From Shigella phage SFP20: 39,499 nucleotides of DNA. The notes under the pieces are model-generated. The model did no database searches. It worked only from the letters and a program-made list of their open reading frames with translations, and was not told the origin of the DNA. The stretch lies in the sequence record OQ031076; one strand, written 5' to 3'. A program made the position numbers and the translations under genes. The stretch's first letter is position 1, and every line of letters starts with the position of its first letter. Shown one piece after another: positions 4,343-39,394 of the stretch.

Positions 4343-4365
4343 ATTACACCCTCACTATAGGGACT
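4343..4365 (+). promoter_or_regulatory. phage RNAP promoter (phi13 position), ATTACACCCTCACTATAGGGACT, +1 about 4360
   Basis: Match to the repeated 23-bp CCCTCACTATAGG promoter family found 12 times in the window. Confidence 0.8.
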
Positions 4366-4393
4366 ATAGGCCCTTTAAGTTATAGGAGACTTT

Positions 4394-4864
4394 ATGTATA
4401 TTCGTAAGGCTACTGAACCTGATGTCCACTACTTATTGTGGCATCTCTCACAAGATGACGTTAAAGAGTGCCGAGCAAACTTCGGGTCGACTAAAGGTCT
4501 GACTGATAGAATGCTTAGCCACCTCACTCCGTCATCTGTGGTTTTGACGAATGGTGTAGGCGAAGTGTTTGCCTATGGTGGGAACCAAGGTGATAACGTG
4601 TGGTTCCTGACTTCAAGTCTTGTCGAAAGGTTAAGACCGAAAGACAAGCGGGAGTTTATTCAGCGTATCTCTGAGTACAGGGACTTAATGTTAGACCAAT
4701 ACGGGACCATCTGGAACTACGTGTGGTCAGGCAATAAGTCTCACATTAGATTCTTGCGGTTGCTGGGCGCTAAGTTTCACCCTGAGGTGACTATCAGTCC
4801 GGTAACAGGTGAGCGTTTTCAATTATTCACAATCTCTAAGGAGGACGTATGTGCGAACCCGTAA
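4394..4864 (+). CDS. 13: internal virion protein A (gp13 position)
   Basis: 156 aa ORF with RBS TAGGAGAC between gene 12 and gene 14; assignment by synteny only. Confidence 0.65.
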   Translation: MYIRKATEPDVHYLLWHLSQDDVKECRANFGSTKGLTDRMLSHLTPSSVVLTNGVGEVFAYGGNQGDNVWFLTSSLVERLRPKDKREFIQRISEYRDLMLDQYGTIWNYVWSGNKSHIRFLRLLGAKFHPEVTISPVTGERFQLFTISKEDVCANP

Positions 4865-5436
4865 GTATCGGCATGGGTATCATGGCTGTAGCCGGGGCCA
4901 CTATGTCCGCATCCCAACAGGCAAAGGCTGAGGGTGCTGCTATTGACGCTCAGAACCGACAGGCTCAGGAGATGATTAAGCAGATGAACTACTCTGACGC
5001 CAACCTGAGGATGCAGGAGCGAGACCTTAAGGAACAGCAGGTCGCTGAACTGACCGAGACGACTCTGAACGGTATTCGTAATCAGGGCATGGTCCGTGCA
5101 GCAGTGGCTGAGTCTGGTCTGGAAGGTAACGCCATGAACCGCATTGAGCGCTCAGTGGAAGGCGACACCGTGAAGGAACGTGCTGGCATCACCGAAAGCT
5201 ACAACCGCGACTATGCGGCTATCTTCGGGAACCGTATTGCCAACATTGAGAACACCAAGTCTGCCATCAAGGGTCAGGCTAAAATCATCAAGACCAGCCC
5301 TCTGGCTCACGCACTTAACGTCACATCTGCTGGTATGCAGGGCTACATGGCTGGCGAGTCTCTCGCTGGGTCCAAGCCGTCAGGCGGTGCAGCTCCAATT
5401 AGTGCCGCTAAAGGCACACCTACAGGTCATAGCTAA
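4849..5436 (+). CDS. 14: internal virion protein B (gp14)
   Basis: 195 aa; begins MC like T7 gp14, similar length (196 aa), Ala/Gln-rich; RBS TAAGGAGG. Confidence 0.85.
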   Translation: MCEPVSIGMGIMAVAGATMSASQQAKAEGAAIDAQNRQAQEMIKQMNYSDANLRMQERDLKEQQVAELTETTLNGIRNQGMVRAAVAESGLEGNAMNRIERSVEGDTVKERAGITESYNRDYAAIFGNRIANIENTKSAIKGQAKIIKTSPLAHALNVTSAGMQGYMAGESLAGSKPSGGAAPISAAKGTPTGHS

Positions 5437-5447
5437 CAGGAGGACCA

Positions 5448-7730
5448 ATGGCTAGTAATATCGAATCAGCTTTAGCTAACCGGACTATGGGCCGTGGTCG
5501 CGCTCCGGGCAAAGCTATCAGTGTAGACTATCAAGCGGCTAACGTTCAGGGGCAGACTGGGGACTCCGGTCTTGCCCGTGCGTTCACCAACTTCGTGGAG
5601 TCCGGCACTGGCCTGTACAAGCAGTTTCAAGAGAAGGCCAAGAACCTTGGGGATGAGCGGTCTAACGAGATTATCCGTAAGCTGACTCCCCAGCAACGGC
5701 GTGAGGCCATCCAGAATGGGACCCTTCTGTATCAGGACGACCCATACGCAATGGAGGCACTGAAGGTCAAGACTGGACGAAACGCTGCCTATGCGGTAGA
5801 CGATGAGATTAACGTCAAGATTCAGAACGGCGAGTTCCGCACCCGTCAGGATATGGAGGAGTATCGCCACCAGCGACTTCAGGATGCCGCTAAGTCCTAC
5901 GCTGATGAGGCTGGTATTAATCCTAATGATGAGCACTTCCAGCGTGGATTTAACGCAGACATCACGGACCGTAACGTAGCCATCTATGGGTCGTTCAATA
6001 AGTATTTCTCTAAGCAGTCCGAGAATACTGCTATGCTGAACACCCGTGTAGAGCTGAACTCGTTCCTGAATGATGGGGACCTGATGCGCTCACCTGAGGC
6101 AGGCAAGTCTTTCATGGCGTACCTTCGCGATGGGCTGACAACTGCCGCCATTCCGTCTGACCAGAGAGCGACTGAAGTTATCTCCCAGACGGTTCGTGAC
6201 GCAATCCAGAAGTCTGGCGGGGCCAACTTCCTACAGCAGATTCGACAAGAGCGCATCACCCTTAACGGAGTGGACGCCACAGTCGAGGAGATTGTCGGGC
6301 CGGAGGTCTTCAACGCCGCTCTGATTGAGGCCCAAGGAACCGAGTACAAGCTGGTGGCTAAGTATCAGGAAGACCTAGCGTTGGGAGTCCAGTCTGCCCT
6401 GCTTCAGGATGACCCGACTATTGGTCTGGCTCAAATCCAGAAACTCAAGGCTCAGAACAACCAGCTCCAGCCGGGTGAGGAGATGACACCACAACGTCAG
6501 ATGCTCATCAATGCTGAGGCCAGCCTCTTAGAGACCGTGAAGCGCAAGTCCGCTGAGCAGGCCAAGGAGAACGTTAAGCTCATCCAGACGCAGAACAAGC
6601 AACTGGTCATCGACCAAGTGTATCAGAGACGACTGGCTGGGGACAACGTGTCCACCAACTATGAGGACCTTCCGGTATCTGAGGCCACTGGTGAGTTCAA
6701 GCGTTCGGACATGAACAACTACGCTATGGGTAAACTCCAGCAGATTGACCAGATGGACATCCCGCAAGCTGCGAAGGATGCTCAGAAGGTGGCACTGCTG
6801 CGGGCTGACACCAACAATGGACCGTTCCGTAATGCCTTCCAGACGCTGACTCAGGATGCTGCTGGTGAGTGGCAGGCTGCGGTAATCCGTGGTCAATACG
6901 ACCCGGACAAGATGCAGCGCTTCGAGGCCCTGCGTAAGGTCTACACTCAGGACCCTTCCAGCTTCGCGGCTCTATACCCTGACCAAGCCCAATTGTTCAC
7001 GACTTTCGAGCAGATGGACAAGATGGGTCTGGACCCTCAGACGATGATTGATGCTGACAAACAGGCTGCAAGCCAGTCCCGTGAGATGCGCATTGAGTCT
7101 GACAAGGCGTGGCAAGAGCTGAAGAACGACTCGAAGAACAAGGACCTCTCGCGGCTCCCGACGAGTCTTGACGCAAGCGCTCGTAAGGTCTGGGACTCAT
7201 GGTATTACCGCACAGGTAACGCCGATGCAGCTACCCAGAACACTCAGAAGTGGCTGAACGAGAACACCGTGACTTTCAGTGATGATGGTCAGGACGGTAA
7301 GTCAATCGGCATGGTGTCCAAGCACCAGCTTATGGTAGGGGATAACCCTGAGTCTTGGCAGGTTGGTCGAGACATTATCGACACAGCCCGCAAGCAGCTC
7401 ATCAAGACTAACCCTTGGGTCGTGAACTCTCAGCTCTCTGTAGTTGAGCAGAACGGCTCGGTCTTCCTGCAAGACGCCACTGGGACCATTCGTATTCGCT
7501 ACGATAAGGAACTGGTTGGTAAACTGTACCGTGAACAGCAGAAACAAGCCGAGGATAAAGCCTACGCTGAAGCTGAACGTAAAGCCAACACCCGCGCTCG
7601 CATTGTCGAGACTAAAGCGGCTGGCGATAAGCGTCGGGCCGAACGTGAAGGTAATATCCAGAAACGCGGTGGTCTGTACAGTGATGTCTCGCTGGAGGGT
7701 ATCGCAAACACCTTAATCGGTAAGGAGTAA
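5448..7730 (+). CDS. 15: internal virion (core) protein C (gp15)
   Basis: 760 aa vs T7 gp15 747 aa; synteny; RBS AGGAGG. Confidence 0.88.
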   Translation: MASNIESALANRTMGRGRAPGKAISVDYQAANVQGQTGDSGLARAFTNFVESGTGLYKQFQEKAKNLGDERSNEIIRKLTPQQRREAIQNGTLLYQDDPYAMEALKVKTGRNAAYAVDDEINVKIQNGEFRTRQDMEEYRHQRLQDAAKSYADEAGINPNDEHFQRGFNADITDRNVAIYGSFNKYFSKQSENTAMLNTRVELNSFLNDGDLMRSPEAGKSFMAYLRDGLTTAAIPSDQRATEVISQTVRDAIQKSGGANFLQQIRQERITLNGVDATVEEIVGPEVFNAALIEAQGTEYKLVAKYQEDLALGVQSALLQDDPTIGLAQIQKLKAQNNQLQPGEEMTPQRQMLINAEASLLETVKRKSAEQAKENVKLIQTQNKQLVIDQVYQRRLAGDNVSTNYEDLPVSEATGEFKRSDMNNYAMGKLQQIDQMDIPQAAKDAQKVALLRADTNNGPFRNAFQTLTQDAAGEWQAAVIRGQYDPDKMQRFEALRKVYTQDPSSFAALYPDQAQLFTTFEQMDKMGLDPQTMIDADKQAASQSREMRIESDKAWQELKNDSKNKDLSRLPTSLDASARKVWDSWYYRTGNADAATQNTQKWLNENTVTFSDDGQDGKSIGMVSKHQLMVGDNPESWQVGRDIIDTARKQLIKTNPWVVNSQLSVVEQNGSVFLQDATGTIRIRYDKELVGKLYREQQKQAEDKAYAEAERKANTRARIVETKAAGDKRRAEREGNIQKRGGLYSDVSLEGIANTLIGKE

Positions 7731-7735
7731 TAACA

Positions 7736-10700
7736 ATGGCGACTCGTGGTATTCGCAACAATAACATCGGGAACATTCGTGTTTCCAAAGACCAGTGGGA
7801 AGGAGCTACAGGAGACGATGGGTCTTTCGTAACGTTCGACACTCCTGACTCTGGCGTCCGCGCTCTGGCGAAGAACCTGATGTCCTACGGTCGCCAAGGC
7901 TACGACTCAATCGAGAAGATTATCAACCGATGGGCACCACCTAGCGAGAACGACACTCAGTCTTACATCGACTCTGTGGTGGCTGCTACTGGCATCCCGG
8001 CGACCCAAAGTATCGACCTGACGAACCCTGATGTCCTCGCCTCTCTGTCTGAGGCTATCGGCTACCACGAGACTGGTTCCCGGTATGACCCTGAGGTCTA
8101 CAAGCTCGGAGTCTCTCGCGCCTTAAGTGGTGCGGGAGGCATCGCCCCAAAGACTCCACCAGTAAGCGCTAACGTCTTCGACGCTCTCACGGAGGGCTTG
8201 AAGGCTAAACCTAAAGTCGCTCTTGGAGAGAACCTTCCGGGCGTTACTGGTATGAACATCGAAGGTCAGGAACCTGAGGCTCCTAACGAGTCTTTCGGAG
8301 AGATGTTCTATAAGTCAACTGGCGAGACGCTGGACCAAAGAGCTGACCGCTCTACATGGTTCGGCTTCGGTGGAGCTGCTGAGGCTGAAGTGAAGAACTC
8401 TCTGGTTGGCGTGGCTGTCCGCGCTGGTCAGACTGAGGACTCACTCGATGTCATTGGCGATGTGTTTAACCCTACCCGCTGGAATAACCACAAGTGGTCC
8501 CGCGAGGAGTTAGACCAGATTCGTAACGCTGGGGTACTCCCTCAGTATTACGGAGTCATCACTGGTGGTTCGCCTCAGAATCTGACCGAGCTGATTAACT
8601 TGGCGCTGGAGAACCAGAAGTTAGACGCTGAGAAGGCTAAGGCCGGGACTGGCGCTCAACTGGCGGCTGGTGTGATTGGTGCTGGCGTGGACCCACTGAC
8701 CTATGTTCCTATTGCCGGACAGGTAGGTAAAGGCGGGAAGCTGGTCAACAAGATGTTCACCGTGGCTGCTCAGTCTGGTGCGTTGGCTGGCGCGTCTGAG
8801 ATTGCTCGTACCTCTGTTGCTGGTGGTGATGCTCACGTTGCCGAGGCAATTATGGGCGGTGCTCTCTTCGGTGGTGGCATGACTGCTATCGGGGACGCTC
8901 TTGGCAAGGTTCTTGGAAAGTCGACCAATGAGTTCGCTGGTCCAGCTACACGTCTTGAGGCACGTGAGACTGCTCGCAACGTTGATGGTCAGGACCTGTC
9001 GCGTCTGCCAATCCGTGAAGGAGAGGAGACCTTCAGTCACCAAGGCGTTAAGTTTGCTGACGTTCCTAACGAGCCGGGAAGTGTGCGACTGGAAGATGGT
9101 TCAATCCTGATTGGCGAGAACCCGCTGAACCCTAAGACACGTCAAGTCTTCGACGAGGTGATTGAGCCTGAACGTGCTGCTGCTGGTGTAAACCTTGGTG
9201 GACTTACCGAGATTGGCTTGAAGCTCTTGAGGTCTGAGAACCCTGAGATTCGCGGACTTGCCGCTGACTTGGTGCGTTCCCCTACAGGTATGCAGTCAGG
9301 TGCGAGCGGGAAGATTGGGACTACAGCGTCAGACGTGTTCGAGCGACTTCGTGCAGTGGACCATCGGTTCTACAACGACATCGACGATGCGGTGACTGAG
9401 GCCCTGAAGGACCCGTACTTCCAGACCAACTTCAACCGTGACACTGGTGCTTTCCGTCAGGACATCTACCAGCGTGTAGCTCTGGCTATCGAGGACGGAA
9501 GTGGGAACCTGAAGTCTGAGCTGACTCCGGGCGAACTGAAGGTCTATGACCTCCTGAAGAACCAGTTTGACGCTAAGCGTGAGATGATGGAGAACCCGGC
9601 GATGTTCGGTCGAGTGGACGCTCAGTCTATCTTCCCCGGTAGCCGCTTCAAGGGGACCTACGTTCCTCATGTTTACAGCAACCAAATGAAGGAACTGTTC
9701 ATCAAGGAGCTGGGAAGCCCTGAGGCGCTACAGGAGGCCATCAAGAAGTCATGGCTCACGAGCTATGCGTCAAGACCTGAGGTCAAAGCGCGGGTGGATG
9801 AGGCCCTGATGGAAGCTGACCCTAATCTGACCCCAGAAGGACTTGCGGCTGCGGTCGATAAGTATGCCAACGATAAGGCTTACGGTATCTCACACACCGA
9901 CATGTTTGAGCGCTCATCCGTCATGGAAGAGAACATCAACGGCCTAGTGGGTCTGGAGAACAACAACTTCCTTGAGGCCCGTAACCTGTTCGATAGTGAT
10001 ATGTCTATCATCCTGCCTAATGGTCAGCCGTTCAACGTGAACAGCCTCCGTGAGTGGGATATGGACAAGATTGTCCCGGCGTACAACCGTCGAGTCAATG
10101 GTGATATTGCTATCATGGCTGGGACCGGGAAGACCACGAAGGAAGTGAAGGATGCAGTAGAGACCATGATGAACCGTGCTGGCGATGATGGGAAGTTGAA
10201 GGCTGAAGTCTCGACCCTGCGTGACACCCTGAAGATTCTGACTGGTCGTGCTCGCCGGGACGGTGCTGACGATGCTGCTTTCTCTACCGTGATGCGGACC
10301 ATGACCGACCTGTCCTTCTTCGCCAAGAATGCCTACATGGGCGTACAGAACTTGACAGAGATTGGTGGGATGCTGGCTCGTGGTAATGTACGTGCAATGC
10401 TGCATGGTATTCCGATGTTCCGTGACCTAGCCTTCCGTAACAAGAAGATGGGTGCATCGGAGATTAAGGACCTGCACAACGTGGTCTTCGGTAAGGAGCT
10501 TGACGACTCCATCCGTCCGTCCAAACAGGATGTCATCGACCGTCTGCGAGCTTACAGTGACCTGAGTAAACCTGTGGCTACTGCTTTGGGTTCCGCCAAG
10601 TATTACACTGGCGAGCTTGCAGTACGCTCCCCGTTTACGAAAGTCCTGAACGGGACGACGAACTATCTGCTGGATGCTGGGCGTCAGGGCTTCTTGTCTG

Positions 10701-11632
10701 ACATCGTGGAACACAGCCTGACCGGAAGCAAGCGTAAGTTTGATGACCGTTGGTTGAAGACCGCTGGTATCTCGGACGAACAGTGGAAGGGCATTAAGTC
10801 CCTCATCCGTGAGTCCGTGACCCGTGGTCCAGACGGGAAGTACACCATCAAGGACAAGAAGGCGTTTAGTCGGGACCCAAGGGCTATGGACCTCTGGCGT
10901 ATGGGTGATGCCATCGCTGACGAGACGCTGCTCCGTCCGCACAAGCTGAGCAACATGGATGCCAAGGCGTATGGACCTCTGGCGAAGACTGTCTTGCAGT
11001 TTAAGAACTTCGTCATCAAGTCCATCAACGGTCGAACCATGCGTACCTTCTACAACGCCACCAAGAACAACCGAGCGATGGACGCTGCACTGTCAACGGT
11101 CATGTCTATGGGTCTGGCTGGAATGTACTACATGGCTCAGGCGCACATCAAGGCTTACGCTATGCAGGACGGTCGTGACAGGGAGTATCTGAAACAAGCC
11201 CTTAACCCGACGATGATTGGCTATGCGGCTCTGTCCCGTAGCTCCCACTTGGGTGGGCCACTTGGGGTAGCCAACATTCTGGGTGGTATCGCTGGGTATG
11301 AGGACACTAAGATGCTCCGCTCGTCAATCCTTCCGCGCTCACCTACCGAGAAACCTGAACGTGCTATTACCTATGGCGCTGCAAAAAGTGACCAGGTGAT
11401 GAACGTGGTCGGTAACTTCCTTGAGCAGGTCCCGGCTTTCGGCTATGCTGCTAACGTTGGCGCTTCGGCTTACAACTTGGCTGGCTACCTGAAGGCTGAT
11501 ACCCGTGTGAATGAACGAGACTACATGACCGGGATGTATAACACTTTCCGCGAGCTGGTCCCTAACGACCCAATCACTCAGAAGCTGCTGTTAGGCACCT
11601 TTGAGGAGCAAGGCATTCACATCAAGGATTAA
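7736..11632 (+). CDS. 16: internal virion (core) protein D (gp16); N-terminal about 200 aa diverges from the T7 lytic-transglycosylase domain
   Basis: 1298 aa; long blocks shared with T7 gp16 (TGGSPQNL, GVIGAGVDPLTYVP, RLEARETARN, RSPTGMQSGASGK, GTYVPHVY, SRPEVKARVDE, ILTGRARR, FFAKNAYMGVQNLTEIGGM, DPRAMDLWR, TFYNATKNNRAMDAALS, ELVPNDP). Confidence 0.95.
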   Translation: MATRGIRNNNIGNIRVSKDQWEGATGDDGSFVTFDTPDSGVRALAKNLMSYGRQGYDSIEKIINRWAPPSENDTQSYIDSVVAATGIPATQSIDLTNPDVLASLSEAIGYHETGSRYDPEVYKLGVSRALSGAGGIAPKTPPVSANVFDALTEGLKAKPKVALGENLPGVTGMNIEGQEPEAPNESFGEMFYKSTGETLDQRADRSTWFGFGGAAEAEVKNSLVGVAVRAGQTEDSLDVIGDVFNPTRWNNHKWSREELDQIRNAGVLPQYYGVITGGSPQNLTELINLALENQKLDAEKAKAGTGAQLAAGVIGAGVDPLTYVPIAGQVGKGGKLVNKMFTVAAQSGALAGASEIARTSVAGGDAHVAEAIMGGALFGGGMTAIGDALGKVLGKSTNEFAGPATRLEARETARNVDGQDLSRLPIREGEETFSHQGVKFADVPNEPGSVRLEDGSILIGENPLNPKTRQVFDEVIEPERAAAGVNLGGLTEIGLKLLRSENPEIRGLAADLVRSPTGMQSGASGKIGTTASDVFERLRAVDHRFYNDIDDAVTEALKDPYFQTNFNRDTGAFRQDIYQRVALAIEDGSGNLKSELTPGELKVYDLLKNQFDAKREMMENPAMFGRVDAQSIFPGSRFKGTYVPHVYSNQMKELFIKELGSPEALQEAIKKSWLTSYASRPEVKARVDEALMEADPNLTPEGLAAAVDKYANDKAYGISHTDMFERSSVMEENINGLVGLENNNFLEARNLFDSDMSIILPNGQPFNVNSLREWDMDKIVPAYNRRVNGDIAIMAGTGKTTKEVKDAVETMMNRAGDDGKLKAEVSTLRDTLKILTGRARRDGADDAAFSTVMRTMTDLSFFAKNAYMGVQNLTEIGGMLARGNVRAMLHGIPMFRDLAFRNKKMGASEIKDLHNVVFGKELDDSIRPSKQDVIDRLRAYSDLSKPVATALGSAKYYTGELAVRSPFTKVLNGTTNYLLDAGRQGFLSDIVEHSLTGSKRKFDDRWLKTAGISDEQWKGIKSLIRESVTRGPDGKYTIKDKKAFSRDPRAMDLWRMGDAIADETLLRPHKLSNMDAKAYGPLAKTVLQFKNFVIKSINGRTMRTFYNATKNNRAMDAALSTVMSMGLAGMYYMAQAHIKAYAMQDGRDREYLKQALNPTMIGYAALSRSSHLGGPLGVANILGGIAGYEDTKMLRSSILPRSPTEKPERAITYGAAKSDQVMNVVGNFLEQVPAFGYAANVGASAYNLAGYLKADTRVNERDYMTGMYNTFRELVPNDPITQKLLLGTFEEQGIHIKD

Positions 11633-11650
11633 ACCCTCACTATAGGAAAC
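11628..11650 (+). promoter_or_regulatory. phage RNAP promoter (phi17 position), ATTAAACCCTCACTATAGGAAAC
   Basis: Promoter family match overlapping the gene 16 stop codon. Confidence 0.8.
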
Positions 11651-11688
11651 GGGGCGCTACCACAGGTCCCATTTAACTCAACACTTAA

Positions 11689-14196
<2,508 letters not shown>

Positions 14197-14242
14197 CAGA
14201 TAACTTTGGGTCAAGGACGACCCGTTTAACAATGGAGGTACT

Positions 14243-14437
14243 ATGATTGAGTTCGACTTCAAGAATGAGGTCCTCAAAGCCTCGCCTATCGTCGGGACCG
14301 CTGCGGCTGATGGTGCCAGTCGGTTCTTCTTTGGGTTAACACTCAACGAATGGTTCTACGTCGCTGCTATCGCGTATACCGTGGTTCAGATTGGCGTACT
14401 GATTTACAAGACGATTAAGAGCGGAGGTAAGACATGA
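14243..14437 (+). CDS. 17.5: holin (gp17.5)
   Basis: 64 aa; near-identical core to T7 gp17.5 (FFGLTLNEWFYVAAIAYTVVQIG). Confidence 0.92.
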   Translation: MIEFDFKNEVLKASPIVGTAAADGASRFFFGLTLNEWFYVAAIAYTVVQIGVLIYKTIKSGGKT

Positions 14438-14697
14438 CGCAGATGGACTTAGAGAAGTTCCTGTTAATGCTGGACACCGAACGTGCTCGACTCATGTTGC
14501 AAGACCTGCGGGATGACTCTAAGCGTTCGCCACAGCTTTACAACGCCATCGAGAAGCTGCTGGCTCGTCACAACTTTGTACTGAGCAAGGTGTCGGTGGA
14601 CGAGAAGCAACTGGCTGACATGGAGGCGCTGAACCGAGAGTACGACAAGGTGCTATCAGCGACCGAGGATAATGACACCGGGTATGGTGTTCAGTAA
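14434..14697 (+). CDS. 18: terminase small subunit (gp18)
   Basis: 87 aa; shares the RSPQLYNAIEKLLARH motif with T7 gp18; ATGA overlap with the holin stop. Confidence 0.9.
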   Translation: MTQMDLEKFLLMLDTERARLMLQDLRDDSKRSPQLYNAIEKLLARHNFVLSKVSVDEKQLADMEALNREYDKVLSATEDNDTGYGVQ

Positions 14698-14703
14698 GTG
14701 TTA

Positions 14704-14747
14704 GACTCAAGGTCATTACCACTATATGTAGTGGCCTTTATGATTAA
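14704..14747 (+). promoter_or_regulatory. putative RNase III processing stem-loop (R18.5 position)
   Basis: GACTCAAGGTCATTACCACTATATGTAGTGGCCTTTATGATTAAC: two-stem hairpin with conserved GACTCAAGG and GGCCTTTATGATTAAC flanks, repeated at other intergenic sites. Confidence 0.55.
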
Positions 14748-14801
14748 CACACACTACGAGCGGTGACGCTACGTGGATTCTGAGAAATGAGGAGGGCAAC
14801 T

Positions 14802-15251
14802 ATGCTCGAACTTTTACGTAAAGCAATCCCGTGGCTGGTTGCAGGACTCCTGTTCTGCTCTGGCTATTGGGTAGCTGATAATAAGTGGGAGGCGAAGGTA
14901 AACAATGAGTACATCACGAAACTTGAGGCACGAGAGAATCAACGGGCTGCTGTCCAAGGTGAAATCGACAAAGTGTCAGCAGAGTGGCAAGACAAGATGT
15001 CCGCGCTGGAAGGCTCTACTGATAGGATTATTGCTGACCTTAACCGCGATAACAAGCGGCTGCGCATCCGAGTCAAACCCACCAGTGGAACAGTCCAGAC
15101 TGACGGTCGATGCGTCATTGATGGTTACGCCGAACTTGACGAACGAGATGCTAAGCGTCTTATCGCCATCGGACTGAAAGGTGACGAATGGATTAAGGCC
15201 CTCCAGAAGACCGTGAGAGCCATGCAGCAAGAGAAGGAGGTGAAACCTTGA
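14802..15251 (+). CDS. 18.5: Rz-like i-spanin (gp18.5)
   Basis: [18 protein letters not shown]... closely matches T7 gp18.5 ([21 protein letters not shown]); start chosen at the ATG at 14802 behind RBS GAGGAGG (the track ORF begins at 14787). Confidence 0.88.
14905..15177 (+). CDS. 18.7: Rz1-like o-spanin lipoprotein (gp18.7), embedded in the +1 frame of 18.5
   Basis: 90 aa; begins MST and contains a lipobox-like [12 protein letters not shown] matching T7 gp18.7 (ATISGCASES); entirely inside gene 18.5. Confidence 0.8.
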   Translation: MSTSRNLRHERINGLLSKVKSTKCQQSGKTRCPRWKALLIGLLLTLTAITSGCASESNPPVEQSRLTVDASLMVTPNLTNEMLSVLSPSD

Positions 15252-17011
15252 GTCAAGACTTAGCAGCGCGTCAGGCGCTTATGACTGCCCGTATGAAGGC
15301 AGACTTCGTGTTCTTCCTGTTCGTTCTGTGGAAAGCTCTGTCACTTCCTGTTCCGACTCGCTGTCAGATTGACATGGCGAAGAAGCTATCGGCTGGGGAC
15401 AACAGGCGCTTCATCTTGCAGGCGTTCCGTGGTATCGGGAAGTCCTTCATTACGTGTGCCTTCGTGGTCTGGAAGCTATGGAATAACCCGGACTTGAAGT
15501 TCATGATTGTGTCGGCCTCAAAGGAACGAGCCGATGCGAACTCAATCTTCATCAAGCGTATCATCGACCTCATGCCTCAGCTCCAAGAGTTGAAGCCTAA
15601 GCAGGGGCAGCGAGACGCAGTAATCAGCTTTGACGTAGGACCTGCCAAGCCTGACCACTCTCCTTCGGTTAAGTCCGTTGGTATCACTGGTCAGTTAACT
15701 GGTAGCCGTGCTGACATCCTGATTGCCGATGACGTAGAGGTCCCCGGTAACTCCGCTACTCAGGCAGCACGGGACCGACTGTCAGAGCTGGTGAAAGAGT
15801 TCGACGCAATCCTGAAGCCGGGTGGTACGGTTATCTATCTGGGTACTCCTCAGACCGAGATGACCTTGTATCGACAGCTTGAAGGTCGTGGTTACTCAAC
15901 TACCATCTGGCCTGCCCGCTACCCACGTGATGAGAAGGACTGGAAGTCTTACGGCGACCGTCTGGCCCCGATGCTTCAGGCCGAGCTTGAGTCCGACCCT
16001 GAGGGCTACTACTGGCTCCCTACCGATGAGGTTCGATTCGACGATGAGGACTTGAGGGAACGTGAGCTGTCTTACGGTAAGGCTGGCTTCGCTCTCCAGT
16101 TCATGCTCAACCCGAACCTTGGTGATGCCGAGAAATACCCGCTGAAGCTGCGTGACCTTATCGTAGCGGACTTGGACCCTGAGTCAAGCCCTATGGTCTA
16201 CCAGTGGCTCCCGAACCTTCAGAACAAGCGTGAGGACGTTCCTAACGTGGGACTCATGGGTGATTCCTACCACACGTATCAGACTGTAGGTTCTGCCTTC
16301 AGTTCGTACACCCAGAAGATTCTGGTCATTGACCCCAGTGGTCGTGGTAAGGATGAGACCGGGTATGCGGTACTGTATCAGCTCAACGGCTACATCTTCG
16401 TGATGGAAGCTGGTGGTATGCGCGGTGGCTATGAGGACTCTACGCTGGAGTCTCTGGCGAAGATTGGTCGCAAGTGGAAGATTAACGAGTACGTCATTGA
16501 GGGTAACTTCGGTGATGGTATGTATCTCGAACTCTTCAAGCCTGTGGCGGCTCGTATTCACCCGGCAGCAGTAACTGAGGTCAAGAGCAAGGGTCAGAAG
16601 GAACTACGCATCTGTGACGTTCTGGAGCCTATCATGGGGTCCCACAGACTCATCGTGAACTCCTCGACCATTGTGTCTGACTACCAGACTGCCGCTGACA
16701 AGGATGGCGTCCGTAACCCTATCTACTCCCTGTTCTACCAGATGACCCGTATCAGCCGTGAACGTGGGGCCTTGGCACACGATGACCGACTTGATGCTCT
16801 GGCTATCGGTGTACAGTTCTTCGTAGAGTCTATGGCTAAGGATGCCGTTAAGGGACAGCGTGAAGTCACCGAGGAGTGGCTGGAGGAACAGATGGAAGAC
16901 CCACGGAAAGGCTTTAAGTCCATCGAGACGGACTACTGGGACAATGGTGTCCGGGTCCAGTTCAATACAGATGATGACTTGGGCTTAGGGTCCTACGTAC
17001 AGTTCCACTAG
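15248..17011 (+). CDS. 19: terminase large subunit (gp19), apparent TTG start
   Basis: 587 aa; extensive identity to T7 gp19 ([134 protein letters not shown]). The track's first codon is TTG at 15248, preceded by RBS AAGGAGG. Confidence 0.95.
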
Positions 17012-17103: not shown

Positions 17104-17126
17104 CTTATACCCTCACTATAGGAAAG
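17104..17126 (+). promoter_or_regulatory. phage RNAP promoter (phiOR position), CTTATACCCTCACTATAGGAAAG
   Basis: Promoter family match downstream of gene 19. Confidence 0.8.
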
Positions 17127-17697: not shown

Positions 17698-17900
17698 TCT
17701 CACAGTTCAAGAACCTCAAGTCTCCCCATAGGCCCTCTTTCAGTCCAGACCAAAGGCCCTACCCCTAGACCTTCGGTCTAAACCTCAAGTCTTTGACCCG
17801 AAGTCGACCCGAAGTCTGGACCGATAGGGCCTATATCTTGTGGTTGGGACGATGGGTCGGGACTATATGTTGTGTCCTTGAGTCTCTATCTGTATCAGCC
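17698..17900. repeat. probable direct terminal repeat (collapsed to one copy) and physical genome end region
   Basis: TCTCACAGT at 17698-17706 matches the first bases of the T7 left end; CCTTGAGTCTCTATCTGTATC near 17875-17895 resembles the T7 TR end (CCTTGAGTGTCTCTCTGTGTCC). Boundaries approximate. Confidence 0.4.
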
Positions 17901-17905
17901 TCAAG

Positions 17906-18027
17906 TCATCACTACAGTCATCACTACAGTCATCACCTACAGTCAACCAGCCTACAGTCAATCCCTAAGTGATGGCCTACCTACAGTCACCAGACCTACA
18001 GTCAATAGACACCATGTCGACCTACAG
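17906..18027. repeat. array of short direct repeats ending in CCTACAGT (CATCACTACAGT x2, CATCACCTACAGT, and others)
   Basis: Tandem and dispersed ...CTACAGT units; positional analogue of the T7 left-end CCTAAAG repeat series. Similar units at 17620-17660 on the other side of the putative TR. Confidence 0.7.
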
Positions 18028-18241
18028 TTTATCAGAGTCCTAAGGTCTAGACTCACAGGTTATCACATCCGGTCCGTTTAGCAGTCAGAGACCATAGCTG
18101 ACTAGGGTTATTGTTGTTGGTGTCTGCCAACTGGACTCTTATTATCCATAGTCCAGACCTAAAGTCAATCACCTGTAGTCGATAATGGTCTTCCTTATAT
18201 AGTCACTGGACTACTGTATAAATTACCATGATAAATAGTTG

Positions 18242-18399: not shown

Positions 18400-18429
18400 T
18401 TGACAAGATGTACCGACTTAAAGTAGTAT
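18400..18429 (+). promoter_or_regulatory. sigma70-type early promoter (A3-like): TTGACA, 18 bp, TAGTAT
   Basis: Downstream GTACCACATCGAAACGACAGTGAAG is nearly identical to the T7 A3 initial transcribed region (GTACCACATGAAACGACAGTGAG). Confidence 0.7.
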
Positions 18430-20762: not shown

Positions 20763-20785
20763 AATATACCCTCACTAGAGGACTC
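20763..20785 (+). promoter_or_regulatory. variant phage-promoter-like element (CCCTCACTAGAGG) upstream of gene 1
   Basis: AATATACCCTCACTAGAGGACTC: one mismatch (TAGA for TATA) to the family consensus; followed by the GACTCAAGG motif. Confidence 0.4.
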
Positions 20786-20854
20786 AAGGTCTAAGACTTC
20801 AGTTAAAGACCAAAGAGACTTTAAGTGAAAGACTAACAAACAAGGACTTTAAGT

Positions 20855-23812: not shown

Positions 23813-24268
23813 ATGTTCAACCGTAAACTGAAAGCACGTATCGCAGAACTTGAGTCCAACCTGACGAAAAGCGATGAGATGAACGACATAATGCGGCGTG
23901 ACAATCGCAGGCTTAAGGACAAGCTGGCGGTAGCCGACAAGAAGCGTGACCCTGAGCCGCTGCAAGTCAAGCGTATGGTCGGCCTTAAGTTCAAGGCGCT
24001 GTTCAATGGCCTCTATCAGCCTACCGAGTTCAAGACCGGGCCGGGACCATGTGGCAAGACGGTAACGCATTTCACCACGAGTCGTACCGAGCGTGAGCTG
24101 ACAATCCACCAGCACCACACGGATGGCTCCAGCAAGTCCTTCGAGTATCGACTGAGTGACATCGACGGTCGCATCCAGTACGACTATGAGAACGTGACAG
24201 TCTACGGAGAGGAGGCAGAACGTGAGCGCCTGATGTGGCGAGCAGCCCGTGTCGCCCGTTTCGCTTAA
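23813..24268 (+). CDS. hypothetical protein, 151 aa (N-terminal charged helix, C-terminal His-rich region)
   Basis: ATG at 23813 with RBS-like GCAGAGG upstream, within the track ORF 23651..24268; coding-like codon usage; unassigned. Confidence 0.5.
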   Translation: MFNRKLKARIAELESNLTKSDEMNDIMRRDNRRLKDKLAVADKKRDPEPLQVKRMVGLKFKALFNGLYQPTEFKTGPGPCGKTVTHFTTSRTERELTIHQHHTDGSSKSFEYRLSDIDGRIQYDYENVTVYGEEAERERLMWRAARVARFA

Positions 24269-24286
24269 ACCCTCACTATAGGATTA
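24264..24286 (+). promoter_or_regulatory. phage RNAP promoter (phi1.1 position), CTTAAACCCTCACTATAGGATTA
   Basis: Promoter family match. Confidence 0.8.
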
Positions 24287-24287
24287 A

Positions 24288-24327
24288 ACTCAAGGTCATC
24301 AGACTTCTGGTGGCCTTCATGATTAAC
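24288..24327 (+). promoter_or_regulatory. putative RNase III stem-loop (R1.1 position)
   Basis: ACTCAAGGTCATCAGACTTCTGGTGGCCTTCATGATTAAC; shares both flanks with the 14704 and 31548 sites. Confidence 0.55.
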
Positions 24328-25969: not shown

Positions 25970-25992
25970 TTTAAACCCTCACTATAGGACCA
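25970..25992 (+). promoter_or_regulatory. phage RNAP promoter, TTTAAACCCTCACTATAGGACCA
   Basis: Promoter family match. Confidence 0.8.
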
Positions 25993-26939: not shown

Positions 26940-27066
26940 GGGTCGCGTTCAATCCTTCGAGGTCCCGGTCTACGCTAAGTCACTCGACGAGGCGACCTTA
27001 AAGTCTCAGGAATATGAAGATGCTGGTTTCGTGGTAGGCCGCATTCGCCCTGAGCAGAAGCAATAA
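26902..27066 (+). CDS. 2: host RNA polymerase inhibitor (gene 2)
   Basis: 54 aa (below track cut-off); [14 protein letters not shown] ... GFVVGRIRP matches T7 Gp2 (SFEVPIYAETLDEA ... GFEVTRVRP); RBS TAAGGAGG. Confidence 0.8.
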
Positions 27067-27084
27067 ACCCTCACTTTAGGACTA
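27062..27084 (+). promoter_or_regulatory. phage RNAP promoter variant (phi2.5 position), AATAAACCCTCACTTTAGGACTA
   Basis: Family match with TTTA in place of TATA. Confidence 0.65.
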
Positions 27085-29164: not shown

Positions 29165-29187
29165 TTTAAACACTCACTAAAGGGAGA
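29165..29187 (+). promoter_or_regulatory. phage RNAP promoter, T3-like variant TTTAAACACTCACTAAAGGGAGA
   Basis: Only copy with CACTAAAGGGAGA (T3-type -3..+6) and ACACT at -12..-8. Confidence 0.7.
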
Positions 29188-29233
29188 GGACTTCGGTCTT
29201 TTCCCTTTTGTCGCATTATTGATTAAGGAGTGA

Positions 29234-30940
<1,707 letters not shown>

Positions 30941-30999: not shown

Positions 31000-31530
31000 A
31001 TGCGAAACTTAATCAGCGGTAAGACCCTCAGTGAGTTCCAGAACCAGCTTGGCCCGAAGGAGGGCCTTAACGTCTTCACGACACGCTGCACTGGCAGGAC
31101 CAAGAGTCGCGCCTTACTGTTCATCTCCACGGTTATGGTCCAAGGGTCTATGGACATCGGGCCTCTCCGTGGCAACCTCGGTGATGATGAGGTCAATTAC
31201 ACCAAGATGGAAATCATCAAGTCCCTAGACCAGATGCAGCTCGTAGGCTTCTCGTGGTCCGGTGACGTTCTGTCCTACTACCCGTTTGAGGAGTATCAAG
31301 ATGTTAAAGAGGTTGTGCGAGAAGTTAAAGTCGAAGTATCACCTTTCGCTGGCGAAGTGGTATCACCACGAAGCTACCGTGTTGTCGAACATTCTGAAGG
31401 ACCAGCGGTTCCAGTCGATAGCTTGGAACAAAGCTACCCAGAAGTGCGCGTATCATCTGGCGAGAGTGCTGTAGTCCCGATGGAGGTCATTGAACCTCTG
31501 GTCCCGGACATGACGCCTCCCAAGCAATAA
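31000..31530 (+). CDS. hypothetical protein (gene 4.3-4.7 region)
   Basis: 176 aa from the ATG at 31000 behind RBS GGAGG, within the track ORF 30919..31530; this frame has the G-rich first codon positions typical of the other genes here. Confidence 0.45.
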   Translation: MRNLISGKTLSEFQNQLGPKEGLNVFTTRCTGRTKSRALLFISTVMVQGSMDIGPLRGNLGDDEVNYTKMEIIKSLDQMQLVGFSWSGDVLSYYPFEEYQDVKEVVREVKVEVSPFAGEVVSPRSYRVVEHSEGPAVPVDSLEQSYPEVRVSSGESAVVPMEVIEPLVPDMTPPKQ

Positions 31531-31548
31531 GCCCTCACTGTAGGATAG
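31526..31548 (+). promoter_or_regulatory. phage RNAP promoter variant, AATAAGCCCTCACTGTAGGATAG
   Basis: Family match with TGTA in place of TATA. Confidence 0.65.
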
Positions 31549-31588
31549 ACTCAAGGCCATTCACATCGAGTGGTCTTTATGATTAGAC
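31548..31588 (+). promoter_or_regulatory. putative RNase III stem-loop upstream of gene 5
   Basis: GACTCAAGGCCATTCACATCGAGTGGTCTTTATGATTAGAC; same flank motifs as the other candidate sites. Confidence 0.5.
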
Positions 31589-35574: not shown

Positions 35575-35597
35575 AATAAACCCTCACTATAGGGATT
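35575..35597 (+). promoter_or_regulatory. phage RNAP promoter (phi6.5 position), AATAAACCCTCACTATAGGGATT
   Basis: Family match; followed by an inverted repeat TAAGACT ... AGTCTTA (about 35611-35640). Confidence 0.8.
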
Positions 35598-35660
35598 TTG
35601 GACCAAAGATAAGACTATAAGATAGACTTAAGTCTTAACTTAAAGAGAGGAGACGTAACG

Positions 35661-35933: not shown

Positions 35934-35944
35934 CAGGAGGGACT

Positions 35945-36169: not shown

Positions 36170-36173
36170 GACT

Positions 36174-36575
36174 ATGCTTCATTACCGAAACTCAAGCGAT
36201 GGTCGCCGCATGGCTGCTGAGCGCCTCTGGGAAGACGGACAGTCTGACTTCGCCTCGTTCTCTGACTTTAAGCAGCATACCTTCCGTATGGCTGATGAGT
36301 TAGAAGGAGAGGAGTATACAATCTACGATGATGAGCTAAAGCCTGTGGCCTACCTCTACATGCTGGCTTCATCGTCTTGGCACCGAAAGACTCCCGGTCT
36401 TGACCTTTCCATTCTCGCTATCCGTAGTGACTCGCAGTCCTCCCGCAAGGTTCTTGAGACTGTCAGCCACATTATTGACGGAGAGTGTAGACGATGGGGT
36501 CTGAACTGGTGGTCCCGTGTCAAGCACAATGGGCCAGTAGACATCGTTCTAACCAAGGAGATAAACCGTGGGTAA
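36174..36575 (+). CDS. 7: gene 7 protein (hypothetical; gene 7 position)
   Basis: 133 aa, same length as T7 gp7; assigned by synteny. Confidence 0.6.
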   Translation: MLHYRNSSDGRRMAAERLWEDGQSDFASFSDFKQHTFRMADELEGEEYTIYDDELKPVAYLYMLASSSWHRKTPGLDLSILAIRSDSQSSRKVLETVSHIIDGECRRWGLNWWSRVKHNGPVDIVLTKEINRG

Positions 36576-36819
36576 ATCTATTAGCAAGGCATTCAAGAAA
36601 GTGGTGGGTGGTGCCCTGAATACTGTGGGTCTGGGACCTTCAGCTCCTCAGCCGAAAGCTCAGGAACAGCAGGTCGCTGCTGCGCCAGTTGACGTCCCTC
36701 AGGACCAAGTGACTGACGTCGAGACCGATGTGACCGAGACCGATAAGAAGAAGGTCAAGGCGACTGGTAAGCGTGGACTTCAGGTCTCTCGTACCTCTGG
36801 TGGCGGTATCTCAATCTAA
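36568..36819 (+). CDS. 7.3: gene 7.3 tail/virion protein, apparent GTG start
   Basis: 83 aa; MGK ... C-terminal SRTSGGGISI vs T7 gp7.3 ARSSGGGINI; RBS AAGGAGA before the GTG at 36568. Confidence 0.75.
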   Translation: MGKSISKAFKKVVGGALNTVGLGPSAPQPKAQEQQVAAAPVDVPQDQVTDVETDVTETDKKKVKATGKRGLQVSRTSGGGISI

Positions 36820-36831
36820 CGGAGGTGACTA

Positions 36832-38400
36832 ATGGCTGAACGTGAAGGCTTCGCTGCTGAAGGAGCCAAGGCGGTCTATGACCGACTGAAGAACGGTCGC
36901 CAGCCGTATGAGACCCGTGCTCAGAACTGCGCTGCTGTCACCATCCCGTCACTGTTCCCGAAAGAGTCTGACAACTCCTCAACCGAGTATACGACTCCGT
37001 GGCAGGCTGTTGGTGCTCGCTGCCTGAACAACCTCGCTGCTAAACTGATGCTGGCCCTGTTCCCTCAAGCCCCGTGGATGAGACTCACCGTCTCTGAATA
37101 CGAGGCCAAGACCCTGAGTCAAGACTCTGAGGCCGCTGCTCGTGTGGATGAGGGGCTGGCTATGGTCGAGCGTGTTCTGATGGCCTACATGGAGACTAAC
37201 AGTTTCCGTGTCCCACTGTTCGAGGCTCTGAAGCAACTTATCGTCTCAGGCAACTGTCTGCTGTACATTCCTGAACCTGAGCAGGGGACCTACAGTCCTA
37301 TGCGCATGTATCGTCTGGTCTCATATGTGGTCCAGCGCGATGCGTTTGGTAACGTGCTACAGATTGTCACCCTCGACAAGGTTGCGTACAGCGCACTCCC
37401 GGAAGACGTTAAGTCACAGCTCAACGCTGATGACTACGAGCCGGACACTGAGCTGGAAGTTTACACGCACATCTATCGTCAGGACGACGAGTACCTGCGT
37501 TATGAGGAAGTGGAAGGAGTAGAGGTTAAGGGGACCGATGGTTCCTACCCGCTTACCGCCTGTCCTTACATCCCGGTACGAATGGTTCGACTGGACGGTG
37601 AAGACTATGGTCGTTCTTACTGCGAGGAGTATCTGGGCGACCTGAACTCGCTGGAGACGATTACAGAAGCTATCACCAAAATGGCTAAGGTAGCCTCCAA
37701 AGTGGTGGGTCTCGTTAACCCGAACGGCATCACGCAACCTCGACGTCTGAACAAGGCGGCTACAGGTGAGTTCGTGGCTGGTCGCGTAGAGGACATCAAC
37801 TTCCTGCAACTGACGAAAGGTCAGGACTTTACGATTGCCAAGTCGGTGGCTGATGCTATCGAGCAACGTTTAGGCTGGGCCTTCCTTCTTAATAGTGCTG
37901 TTCAGCGTAATGCCGAGCGAGTCACTGCCGAAGAGATTCGTTATGTTGCTGGCGAACTGGAGGCGACCTTAGGTGGCGTGTATTCCGTGCAGTCTCAGGA
38001 GATGCAGTTACCTCTGGTCCGTGTGCTGCTGAACCAGCTTCAGTCTGCTGGCATGATTCCTGACCTTCCGAAAGAAGCAGTAGAGCCTACGGTCTCCACT
38101 GGTCTGGAAGCTCTGGGTCGTGGTCAGGACTTGGAGAAGCTGACTCAGGCGGTTAACATGATGACTGGACTTCAGCCTCTGGCTCAGGACCCGGACATCA
38201 ACTTACCGACCCTTAAGTTGCGACTCCTTAACGCTCTGGGCATCGACACCGCTGGTCTGCTCCTGACGCAAGACGAGAAGATTCAGCGTATGGCTGAGCA
38301 GTCGTCTCAACAGGCAGTCGTACAAGGCGCTGGTGCTGCTGGTGCCAATATGGGCGCTGCTGTGGGTCAGGGCGCTGGCGAGGATATGGCTCAGGCTTAA
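36832..38400 (+). CDS. 8: portal / head-tail connector protein (gene 8)
   Basis: 522 aa; extensive identity to T7 gp8 (YETRAQNCA, TIPSLFPK, TPWQAVGAR.LNNLA.KLMLALFP, YVVQRDAFGNVLQ, LRYEEVEG, ACPYIP.RMVRLDGE.YGRSY.EEYLGDL.SLE, GLVNP.GITQPRRL.KA.TG.FV.GR.EDI.FLQL, ERVTAEEIRYVA.ELE.TLGGVYS, LPLVRVLL.QLQ, PKEAVEPT.STGLEA.GRGQDL.KL). Confidence 0.98.
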   Translation: MAEREGFAAEGAKAVYDRLKNGRQPYETRAQNCAAVTIPSLFPKESDNSSTEYTTPWQAVGARCLNNLAAKLMLALFPQAPWMRLTVSEYEAKTLSQDSEAAARVDEGLAMVERVLMAYMETNSFRVPLFEALKQLIVSGNCLLYIPEPEQGTYSPMRMYRLVSYVVQRDAFGNVLQIVTLDKVAYSALPEDVKSQLNADDYEPDTELEVYTHIYRQDDEYLRYEEVEGVEVKGTDGSYPLTACPYIPVRMVRLDGEDYGRSYCEEYLGDLNSLETITEAITKMAKVASKVVGLVNPNGITQPRRLNKAATGEFVAGRVEDINFLQLTKGQDFTIAKSVADAIEQRLGWAFLLNSAVQRNAERVTAEEIRYVAGELEATLGGVYSVQSQEMQLPLVRVLLNQLQSAGMIPDLPKEAVEPTVSTGLEALGRGQDLEKLTQAVNMMTGLQPLAQDPDINLPTLKLRLLNALGIDTAGLLLTQDEKIQRMAEQSSQQAVVQGAGAAGANMGAAVGQGAGEDMAQA

Positions 38401-38418
38401 ACCCTCACTATAGGAACA
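38396..38418 (+). promoter_or_regulatory. phage RNAP promoter (phi9 position), CTTAAACCCTCACTATAGGAACA
   Basis: Family match; transcript leader contains a 9-bp perfect inverted repeat GGAACAACG (38414-38422) / CGTTGTTCC (38452-38460). Confidence 0.8.
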
Positions 38419-38488
38419 ACGTCTGGTCTACAATTTGTAGGTTTCTAGTCCCGTTGTTCCTATCAACAACCATCAAAGGAGAGACTTA

Positions 38489-39373
38489 ATGTCCCAATCA
38501 GTTTATGCCGAGTTCGGCGTTAGTCCTAATGCAATCACTGGTTCCGTTGAGGACCTGAACGAACACCAACAGTCTATGCTGGAGAAGGACGTAGCTGTCC
38601 GTGATGGCGATGATGCCATTACCTTCAAGCAACTGGAAGCCGAGCAACAGGAAGAGGCGACCGAAGAAGGCGAGAACGTCGAAGAGGCTGAAGGCGAAGA
38701 AACCGAAGGCAACGACGATGAGTCCGATACCGAAGGCGATGACCAAGAGTTCGTTGAGCTGGGCGAAACCCCGAAAGAGCTGACCGAAAGTGTAGCCGCT
38801 CTTGACGAGAATGAAGCTGCGTTCGACGACATGGTGTCTGCTGCTGTAGAAGCTGGTAAGGTTACTGCTGATGACATAGCCACTATTAAGGCTGAATACG
38901 CATCTAAAGGTGAACTGTCCGAGGCATCCTACGCTAAGCTGGCTGAAGCTGGATACACCAAGCGTTTCGTCGATTCGTTCGTCCGTGGTCAGGAAGCTCT
39001 GGCTGAGCAGTATGCTGCGGGTGTGGTTCGCTACGCTGGTGGTGCTGAGCAGTTCAACCGCATCCTGTCTCACCTTGAGGCCAACGATAAGTCAACCAAG
39101 GAAGCCCTTGAGTCTGCAATCATCCGTAAGGACCTTGCGACCGCTAAGGCCATCCTGAATCTGGCTGGTCGTAACCTCGGCAAGACCCGTGGCGTTGCAC
39201 CTCAGCGCACCCTGACGACCCAAGGTAAGCCAGCAGTCGCTGCACCGAAGGTCCAGACCGAAGGCTTCAGCTCCAAGGCTGACATGATTAAGGCCATGAG
39301 CGACCCGCGCTATCTGCGTGATGCTGCTTACACCAACTCTGTCCGCACGAAGGTTGCTGCTTCCAACTTCTAA
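38489..39373 (+). CDS. 9: capsid assembly (scaffolding) protein (gene 9)
   Basis: 294 aa; RDGDDAI, acidic central region, SYAKLAE.GYTK.F.DS..RGQEAL.EQY, DLAT.KAI.NLAG, IKAMSDPRY, C-terminal SNF as in T7 gp9. Confidence 0.93.
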   Translation: MSQSVYAEFGVSPNAITGSVEDLNEHQQSMLEKDVAVRDGDDAITFKQLEAEQQEEATEEGENVEEAEGEETEGNDDESDTEGDDQEFVELGETPKELTESVAALDENEAAFDDMVSAAVEAGKVTADDIATIKAEYASKGELSEASYAKLAEAGYTKRFVDSFVRGQEALAEQYAAGVVRYAGGAEQFNRILSHLEANDKSTKEALESAIIRKDLATAKAILNLAGRNLGKTRGVAPQRTLTTQGKPAVAAPKVQTEGFSSKADMIKAMSDPRYLRDAAYTNSVRTKVAASNF

Positions 39374-39394
39374 TATACCCTCACTATAGGGAGA
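39372..39394 (+). promoter_or_regulatory. phage RNAP promoter phi10 (major capsid promoter), AATATACCCTCACTATAGGGAGA
   Basis: Best match to the T7/T3 class III consensus (GGGAGA at +1..+6); followed by a leader and RBS AGGAGA at 39486-39491 that serves the ATG at window position 1 once the window is circularised. Confidence 0.85.

Follow-up and report, generated by a model that had tools for sequence, protein, structure and literature searches.

The 39,499-nucleotide (nt) genome of Shigella phage SFP20 (record OQ031076), analyzed here as one window covering the whole record and numbered from its first letter, carries twelve copies of a short element that are very likely promoters for gp1, the single-subunit RNA polymerase that the phage encodes, with a specificity that, judged from sequence, would belong to the T3 class. 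The proposal of an earlier note on this DNA that the elements are promoters of a phage-encoded polymerase is supported by an intact polymerase gene, by a copy number, strand, and intergenic placement like those of the T7 and T3 maps, and by orthologous positions in related phages. By megablast, the window was assigned to the genus Kayfunavirus (K1F-like; Studiervirinae, T7 family), in which we found two promoter types, each matched to its resident polymerase.

All twelve elements are present where the earlier note had placed them, and all lie on the plus strand. The 21-mer used in that note recovers 6 sites with up to 3 mismatches (0.00 expected), and the 14-base core ACCCTCACTATAGG, at the same tolerance, recovers the 12 sites together with 2 weak minus-strand chance matches (14 compared with 2.9 expected, a number reached by none of 100 shuffles). 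With a weight matrix spanning −19 to +8, the twelve score 27.2 to 37.4 and the next-best site on either strand scores 7.9; this gap indicates that there are exactly twelve sites and that none was missed. Every element is intergenic or overlaps just the final codons of the preceding gene, the next start codon follows after 31 to 181 nt, and none lies inside a gene. An element of approximately 23 base pairs (bp; −17 to +6) present in 12 copies on the coding strand is in keeping with the 10 to 20 copies per genome by which T7-family promoters are recognized.

The elements show the three-part architecture of T7-family promoters, with an AT-rich stretch at −17 to −13, a specificity block at −12 to −7, and a TATA-like segment at −4 to −1 followed by the GG start. 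Invariant in all 12 are T at −15, A at −14, CTCACT at −9 to −4, A at −1, and GG at +1/+2. The consensus quoted in the earlier note, AATAAACCCTCACTATAGGGA, has a single exact match, at 35575; the actual consensus is (A/C/T)(T/A)TA(A)ACCCTCACTATAGG(A>G), with T at −16 in 7 of 12 copies and A in the other 5, and A at +3 in 8 and G in 4. The block ACCCT at −12 to −8 is exact in 10 of 12, the exceptions being the elements at 29165 (A at −10) and 31526 (G at −12). Some of the earlier numbering needs correction: when +1 is the first G, CCCTC occupies −11 to −7 rather than −12 to −8, and the changes TAGA, TTTA, and TGTA, which had been assigned to −4/−3, fall at −2, −3, and −3, respectively. The exceptional copy at 29165 (ACACT...TAAAGGGAGA) is as had been described and matches the T3 phi3.8 promoter exactly over −12 to +6. 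At five promoters, the upstream gene terminates with the TAA at −15 to −13 as its stop codon (11630–11632, 24266–24268, 27064–27066, 31528–31530, and 38398–38400, including, for example, the ends of genes 16 and 8).

Gene 1 (20855–23521, plus strand) encodes the 888-residue T7-family RNA polymerase, identified by Pfam RNA_pol (E = 7e-106) together with RPOL_N, and the equivalents of the T7 catalytic residues D537, K631, Y639, H784, and D812 are conserved in the alignment. The protein is 98% identical to the polymerase of Shigella phage SFP21B, 89 to 91% identical to those of K1F and Dev2, and 64 to 65% identical to those of T7 and T3. Within the specificity loop (T7 residues 739 to 770; 23084–23179 by alignment), the positions that contact bases in the T7 complex hold R751 (23105–23107), D753 (23111–23113), R761 (23135–23137), and Q763 (23141–23143), which correspond to T7 R746, N748, R756, and Q758 and equal the T3 residue set. 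We ran the loop alignment that the earlier note had proposed, and the equivalent of T7 N748 and T3 D749 proved to be an aspartate, D753, which fits the T3-like CC at −11/−10. The loop peptide quoted in that note does occur at 23138–23200, but it begins one residue past R761, the R756 equivalent, and the decisive aspartate lies 25 nt upstream. The AT-rich recognition loop (T7 residues 93 to 101; 21131–21157, plus strand) reads G-STRGKPQV, which resembles the T7 KRGK motif and is unlike the K1F-type DGKSSTSRPSV.

Residues 748, 756, and 758 and promoter bases −12 to −8 dominate specificity in T7-like polymerases; the base-contact roles of T7 R746, N748, R756, and Q758 have been summarized, and, in a T7 background, the DRQ combination shows activity with a C-rich block (PMC11880802, Zhu et al. 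2025). In addition, a T7 promoter carrying the T3 block at −12 to −7 is used by a T7 polymerase with the T3 loop and is orthogonal to the K1F pair (PMC3458549, Temme et al. 2012). Under the published residue code, the R/D/R/Q set of SFP20 agrees with C, C, C, T, and C at −11 to −7. What is T3-like in the promoters is reduced to two bases, C at both −10 and −9, whose counterparts in the polymerase are D748 and R756 (T7 numbering).

The polymerase loops and all promoters were extracted from the window and 12 other Kayfunavirus genomes (n = 13); strict regular-expression screens missed the K1F and Dev2 promoters, which were recovered by counting frequent 11-mers. The five type B genomes (the window, SFP21B, GW1, Ro103C3lw, and EcpYZU01) have D/R/Q at T7 positions 748/756/758, the AT-rich loop STRGKPQVAF (AARGRPQVAI in EcpYZU01), and the promoter NNTAAACCCTCACTATAGG. 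The eight type A genomes (K1F, Dev2, SFPH2, SH4, IMM-002, SD6, vB_EclP_26, and SFP21A) have N/N/Q, the AT-rich loop S/LSTSRPSVAF with two insertions, and the promoter NCT(A/T)AACTATCACTATAGG. Residue set and promoter block co-vary in 13 of 13 genomes, D/R/Q with CCCT in five and N/N/Q with CTAT in eight. A natural control is provided by vB_EclP_26, whose loop shares T754 and the S at T7 position 765 with the window (SSK, compared with S/T/A-KK in the K1F type) and yet has N/N at 748/756 and CTAT promoters.

Both types occupy the same set of approximately twelve promoter positions (11 or 12 per genome), and they have in common CACTATAGG, the transcribed starts (GGATTAGA, GGAAACGG, and GGGAGACC), and the kind of deviation at −3 found before genes 2.5 and 5. 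In all 12 pairs of orthologous promoters compared between the window and Dev2, the bases at −16, −10, and −9 differ, and no pair differs at −15, −11, −8 to −5, or −1 to +2. The K1F-type orthologues (CTAAACTATCACTATAGG) have the same TATA and differ from the window set only at those three positions. Position −16 also co-varies with the AT-rich loop, being T or A in the window and C in K1F-type genomes. Membership of the window in the K1F-type class (ACTAT at −12 to −8, C at −16, N748/N756) was considered and rejected, given that its promoters have ACCCT and either T or A at −16, its polymerase has D/R, and CTAT-type promoters are absent from it throughout. No promoters of the other type were found in the 11 genomes scanned, including as fossils comparable to the unused T7 promoter before T3 gene 17; the approximately 130 promoters of 11 genomes all fit the resident polymerase type at −10/−9, even where the flanks are 94 to 98% identical across types.

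This agreement is maintained in mosaic genomes. The late genes of SFP20 are 92 to 98% identical to those of phages with the other promoter type (Dev2, SH4, and SFPH2, compared over window positions 1–17011), and they are as near to type A as to type B, or nearer (for gene 10, identity is 97.9% with Dev2 and 96.3% with GW1). Gene 1 is the only gene that clearly separates the types, with approximately 92.5 to 93% identity to SFP21B, GW1, and Ro103C3lw (82% to EcpYZU01), compared with approximately 83 to 87% to type A. A single Shigella host strain yielded one phage of each type, SFP21A (type A) and SFP21B (type B). A tblastn search with the loop returned approximately 14 phage records at 90% identity or above, nearly all of type B (SD6, at 91.3%, is type A), and approximately 206 in the 80 to 90% band. 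Four IMG/VR contigs carry AACCCTCACTATAGG more than once: GW1, EcpYZU01, a 39.9-kb metagenomic genome (7 copies), and a 24.8-kb metagenomic viral contig (2 copies, T3-like variant). The last of these, 3300020045_000647, carries ATTAACCCTCACTATAGGGAGA twice, which is the T3 consensus with T at −2; the T3 block joined to TATA is thus found outside the lineage of SFP20 as well.

In the model that we propose, host polymerase would transcribe the early region, gene 1 included, after which gp1 would initiate at the GG of each element and transcribe the middle and late genes rightward. The specificity loop is predicted to read the major groove from −11 to −7, with R751 reading −7, Q763 reading −8, R761 reading −9, and D753 reading −10/−11; the AT-rich loop would read −17 to −13, and TATA at −4 to −1 would be the melting region. 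We infer the residue-base contacts from T7 structure and published engineering, and transcription itself from the observed sequences, placement, orthology, and covariation. The resulting specificity class would be T3-like (D/R/Q with ACCCT at −12 to −8) on a K1F-genus scaffold, and the polymerase changes relative to the K1F type (D for N at 748, R for N at 756, and a different AT-rich loop) would match the promoter changes.

Several points weigh against this model. No transcript or biochemical evidence for the phage or its close relatives was found in the literature. The residue-base assignments are borrowed from T7, to which the polymerase is just 64% identical. The AT-rich loop as a whole is unlike those of both T7 and T3, and upstream recognition may not follow T3. 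Finally, EcpYZU01, a type B phage, retains C at −16 in one promoter, which reduces the association of the AT-rich loop with −16 to a correlation.

The earlier note described the promoters as a T3/T7 hybrid, which is fair as a description (T3-like CCCTC, T7-like TATA) but misleading as to origin, since TATA is genus-wide and the polymerase is a Kayfunavirus enzyme and not a chimera. In favor of a recombination between a T3-like and a T7-like phage, giving a T3 upstream half, a T7 downstream half, and a chimeric polymerase, the consensus differs from T3 only at −16 (where 5 of 12 copies have A, as in T3), −14, −2, and +3, with −2 as in T7 class III promoters, and the 29165 promoter equals phi3.8 over 19 nt. 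Such an event is nonetheless highly improbable. The polymerase keeps its 89 to 91% identity to K1F and Dev2 along its whole length, far above its identity to T7 or T3, its specificity loop is the Kayfunavirus backbone (KKDTTRL.L.FLG.F.LQPTVNKG..KELDK) with point differences rather than T3 sequence, and TATA and the transcribed starts listed above are shared with K1F-type orthologues. Moreover, TAAA also occurs in T7 class II promoters, and position −2 therefore marks neither specificity nor lineage. Descent of the window from Teetrevirus (T3-like) was likewise rejected: the polymerase is 64.8% identical to that of T3 and 98% to that of Kayfunavirus SFP21B, and nucleotide matches are to Kayfunavirus genome-wide.

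Alternatively, the repeats might chiefly have a role other than that of promoters, such as RNA processing by RNase III, the initiation of replication, or packaging. Hairpins with ACTCAAGG, as at T7 and T3 RNase III sites, lie after several of them, and in the T3 record an annotated origin adjoins phi1.05; some T7 promoters double as replication origins. We regard this explanation as scarcely credible, however, because the conserved block is a promoter-like 19-mer and the downstream hairpins vary or are absent, because 15 of 17 bases of the block agree with the upstream region of T3 promoters and it contains the T7 core CACTATAGG, and because it co-varies with the DNA-reading residues of the polymerase; an origin function would add to the promoter function, as in T7. 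It is also conceivable, if unlikely, that the elements are promoters but that a relaxed polymerase uses K1F-type, T3, and T7 promoters as well, the T3-like block reflecting drift and not a switch in specificity. Loop-swapped T7 polymerases built by Temme and colleagues did show residual cross-activity on non-cognate promoters, as summarized in PMC11880802. Drift should leave mixed promoter sets, however, and among the approximately 130 promoters there is not one exception to the match with the resident polymerase.

We therefore favor the interpretation of the twelve elements as T3-class promoters of gp1. A further reading, which we offer tentatively and hold to be possible, is that two mutually exclusive specificities (N/N/Q with CTAT and D/R/Q with CCCT) circulate in one genus, in the same hosts, with structural modules recombining freely. 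They may then represent a natural experiment in coordinated polymerase and promoter switching and a possible transcriptional barrier between co-infecting relatives, in which a T3-like code could have arisen, independently of T3, in a K1F-like backbone through two residue changes together with an altered AT-rich loop.

Promoters of the middle and late regions differ in how closely they follow the core. All six late promoters have a perfect ACCCTCACTATAGG core, and 4 of the 6 in the gene 1 to 5 region deviate (20763, 27062, 29165, and 31526), a skew with p = 0.03 in a one-sided Fisher test. Both types show the deviations before genes 2.5, 4, and 5 again at the orthologous promoters, which suggests that these deviations are maintained, and it is plausible that the middle-region variants are weaker class II promoters.

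Coordinates of the individual promoters, all on the plus strand, span −17 to +6 and rest on the sequence check, the weight matrix, and gene placement. The promoter directly upstream of gene 1 (20763–20785; AATATACCCTCACTAGAGGACTC) has G at −2. It has an orthologue before gene 1 in every Kayfunavirus genome compared, with variation at −2/−3 (TAGA in the window and TATA, TAAA, or TGTA elsewhere), and its location (20763–20854, up to the gene) means that gp1 could transcribe its own gene in a positive feedback. The promoter at the phi1.1-like position (24264–24286; CTTAAACCCTCACTATAGGATTA) has a perfect core and overlaps the stop codon of the preceding open reading frame, and that after the ligase gene, at the phi1.5-like position (25970–25992; TTTAAACCCTCACTATAGGACCA), also has a perfect core. 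Before gene 2.5, encoding the single-stranded DNA-binding protein (27062–27084), T at −3 gives TTTA, and a deviation at −3, to T or G, recurs in all relatives. The promoter before gene 4, encoding the primase/helicase (29165–29187; TTTAAACACTCACTAAAGGGAGA), combines A at −10 with A at −2. That before gene 5, encoding the DNA polymerase (31526–31548), has G at −12 and G at −3 (TGTA); the latter recurs in 9 of the 10 other genomes first compared and in vB_EclP_26 and SFP21A, EcpYZU01 has T there, and K1F and SD6 lack a promoter at this position.

Late promoters begin at the phi6.5 position (35575–35597) with the copy that matches the consensus of the earlier note. It is followed by promoters before gene 9, encoding the scaffold protein (38396–38418, overlapping the end of gene 8), and before gene 10, encoding the major capsid protein (39372–39394); the transcript from the latter would begin GGGAGACC, as at T7 phi10, and the ATG of gene 10 is window position 1. 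At the promoter before gene 13, in the phi13 position (4343–4365), the types differ in a patch from −22 to −9 within flanks that are approximately 98% identical. Before gene 17, encoding the tail fiber (11628–11650), the TAA at −15 to −13 also ends gene 16, and the promoter after gene 19, at the phiOR position (17104–17126), lies approximately 600 nt before a homologue of the terminal repeat.

Several RNA structures are predicted near these promoters. Between genes 10 and 11, at the T7/T3 Tphi position, a terminator-like hairpin (1316–1359, plus strand) has a perfect stem of 17 bp and, after it, a tract of six U (−25.2 kcal/mol, z = −5.2); it probably serves the phage polymerase as a terminator in the way that Tphi does in T7 and T3. 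Generic sigma-70 and terminator scans of the window were at background level overall, with the Tphi-like hairpin as the sole standout. Hairpins with ACTCAAGG(T/C)C, like annotated T3 and T7 RNase III sites, lie downstream of several promoters (20780–20800, 24281–24325, and 31543–31580); compared with shuffled controls, folding is better for the hairpin after 24264 (z = −2.1) but not for that after 20763 (z = −0.4). At the predicted start of the gene 4 transcript (29182–29210), a 10-bp GC-rich hairpin (GGGAGAGGAC-UUCG-GUCUUUUCCC) is followed by UUUU (z = −3.1) and could be a terminator-like or stabilizing structure at the 5′ end; the T3 annotation has an RNase III site overlapping the phi3.8 promoter. 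A scan of the whole window against Rfam at gathering thresholds gave no match, which leaves RNase III sites and other RNA elements without corroboration from that source; Rfam includes no model for the ACTCAAGG hairpins.

The record, a permuted assembly, begins at the gene 10 ATG, and its gene order is that of T7. A homologue of the terminal repeat is present as a single copy at approximately 17698–17889, with 82 to 87% identity to the repeats of SH4 and Ro103C3lw, which indicates a circularly permuted assembly with the physical left end near 17700; a run of short CCTACAGTCA-like repeats follows it (region 17698–18040). The best sigma-70-like site of the early region (18400–18429, TTGACA-18-TAGTAT) lies upstream of the S-adenosylmethionine (SAM)-hydrolase gene (18650) and is a candidate early host promoter. 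By megablast, SFP21B shows 96.9% identity across the first 20 kb, and Dev2, SH4, and SFPH2 are approximately 93 to 95% identical across the same late region; no other record is identical to SFP20.

In the literature searched, the literal string CCCTCACTATA occurred only in papers unrelated to phage genomes, with titles pointing to primers or synthetic constructs, and in no description of a natural phage promoter. Genome papers on Ro103C3lw, SH3 to SH5 and Dev2, and Hafnia phage Ca describe no phage-specific promoters of this lineage, and a literature search found no discussion of the coexistence of two types within the genus. Type B is a minority promoter lineage in the genus and is already in public records without annotation (GW1, SFP21B, Ro103C3lw, and EcpYZU01); it was very probably also included in the genome mining of PMC11880802. 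This is, in most respects, an ordinary T7-type promoter system, and its mildly interesting part is the switch of promoter type inside one genus. The present work provides a complete promoter and terminator map for a lineage whose GenBank records have no regulatory annotation. Beyond routine annotation, it describes a clean two-state switch that involves two loop residues and three promoter positions. This natural case offers a compact test of the residue-to-base code that genome mining has suggested (PMC11880802), and it prompts one to ask how a dozen promoters scattered over the genome can switch in concert when the genes around them continue to recombine. A natural polymerase of T3-class specificity whose backbone is divergent (approximately 65% identical) is, in addition, a possible part for orthogonal expression systems.

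Among known systems, T3 shares with SFP20 the reading residues (by T7 numbering, R746, D748, R756, and Q758) and the −12 to −4 block, ACCCTCACT, and its consensus upstream of +1 agrees with that of the window at 15 of 17 positions. The two differ at −14 (T in T3, A in the window), at −2 (A in all T3 promoters, T in 10 of 12 in the window, giving TATA), and at +3 (GGG in T3, mostly A in the window); the T3 polymerase is approximately 65% identical, its AT-rich loop differs, and T3 belongs to the genus Teetrevirus. T7 has the same 23-bp architecture, TCACTATAGG at −8 to +2, late promoters that are more uniform than the variable early and middle ones, a phi10 that begins GGGAGACC, and, as in the window, a Tphi-like terminator after gene 10. 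It differs in having CGA at −12 to −10 and N748, and in its 17 promoters, which include phiOL and of which none lies directly before gene 1. Upstream of gene 1, T7 and T3 instead have an E. coli C promoter and an RNase III site and not a phage-type promoter. The window positions before genes 1.1, 1.5, 2.5, 4, 6.5, 9, 10, 13, and 17 and after gene 19 parallel the T7 and T3 annotation.

K1F-type phages (K1F, which is the type species of Kayfunavirus, and Dev2, SH4, SFPH2, IMM-002, SD6, SFP21A, and vB_EclP_26) are of the same genus as the window, with the same promoter positions, including that before gene 1, polymerases 89 to 91% identical, and late genes 92 to 98% identical. Their promoters carry −16 C, −10 T, and −9 A (CTAAACTATCACT), and their polymerases have N748/N756 and an AT-rich loop with two insertions; TATA is common to T7 class III promoters and all of these relatives. 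The closest parallel in design is synthetic: the engineered PT3 promoter (PMC3458549) and the DRQ variants (PMC11880802) likewise join the T3 block to a TATA start region. Those constructs were made in a T7 background, whereas the SFP20 promoters are natural, belong to a K1F-genus background, and are present in twelve copies per genome.

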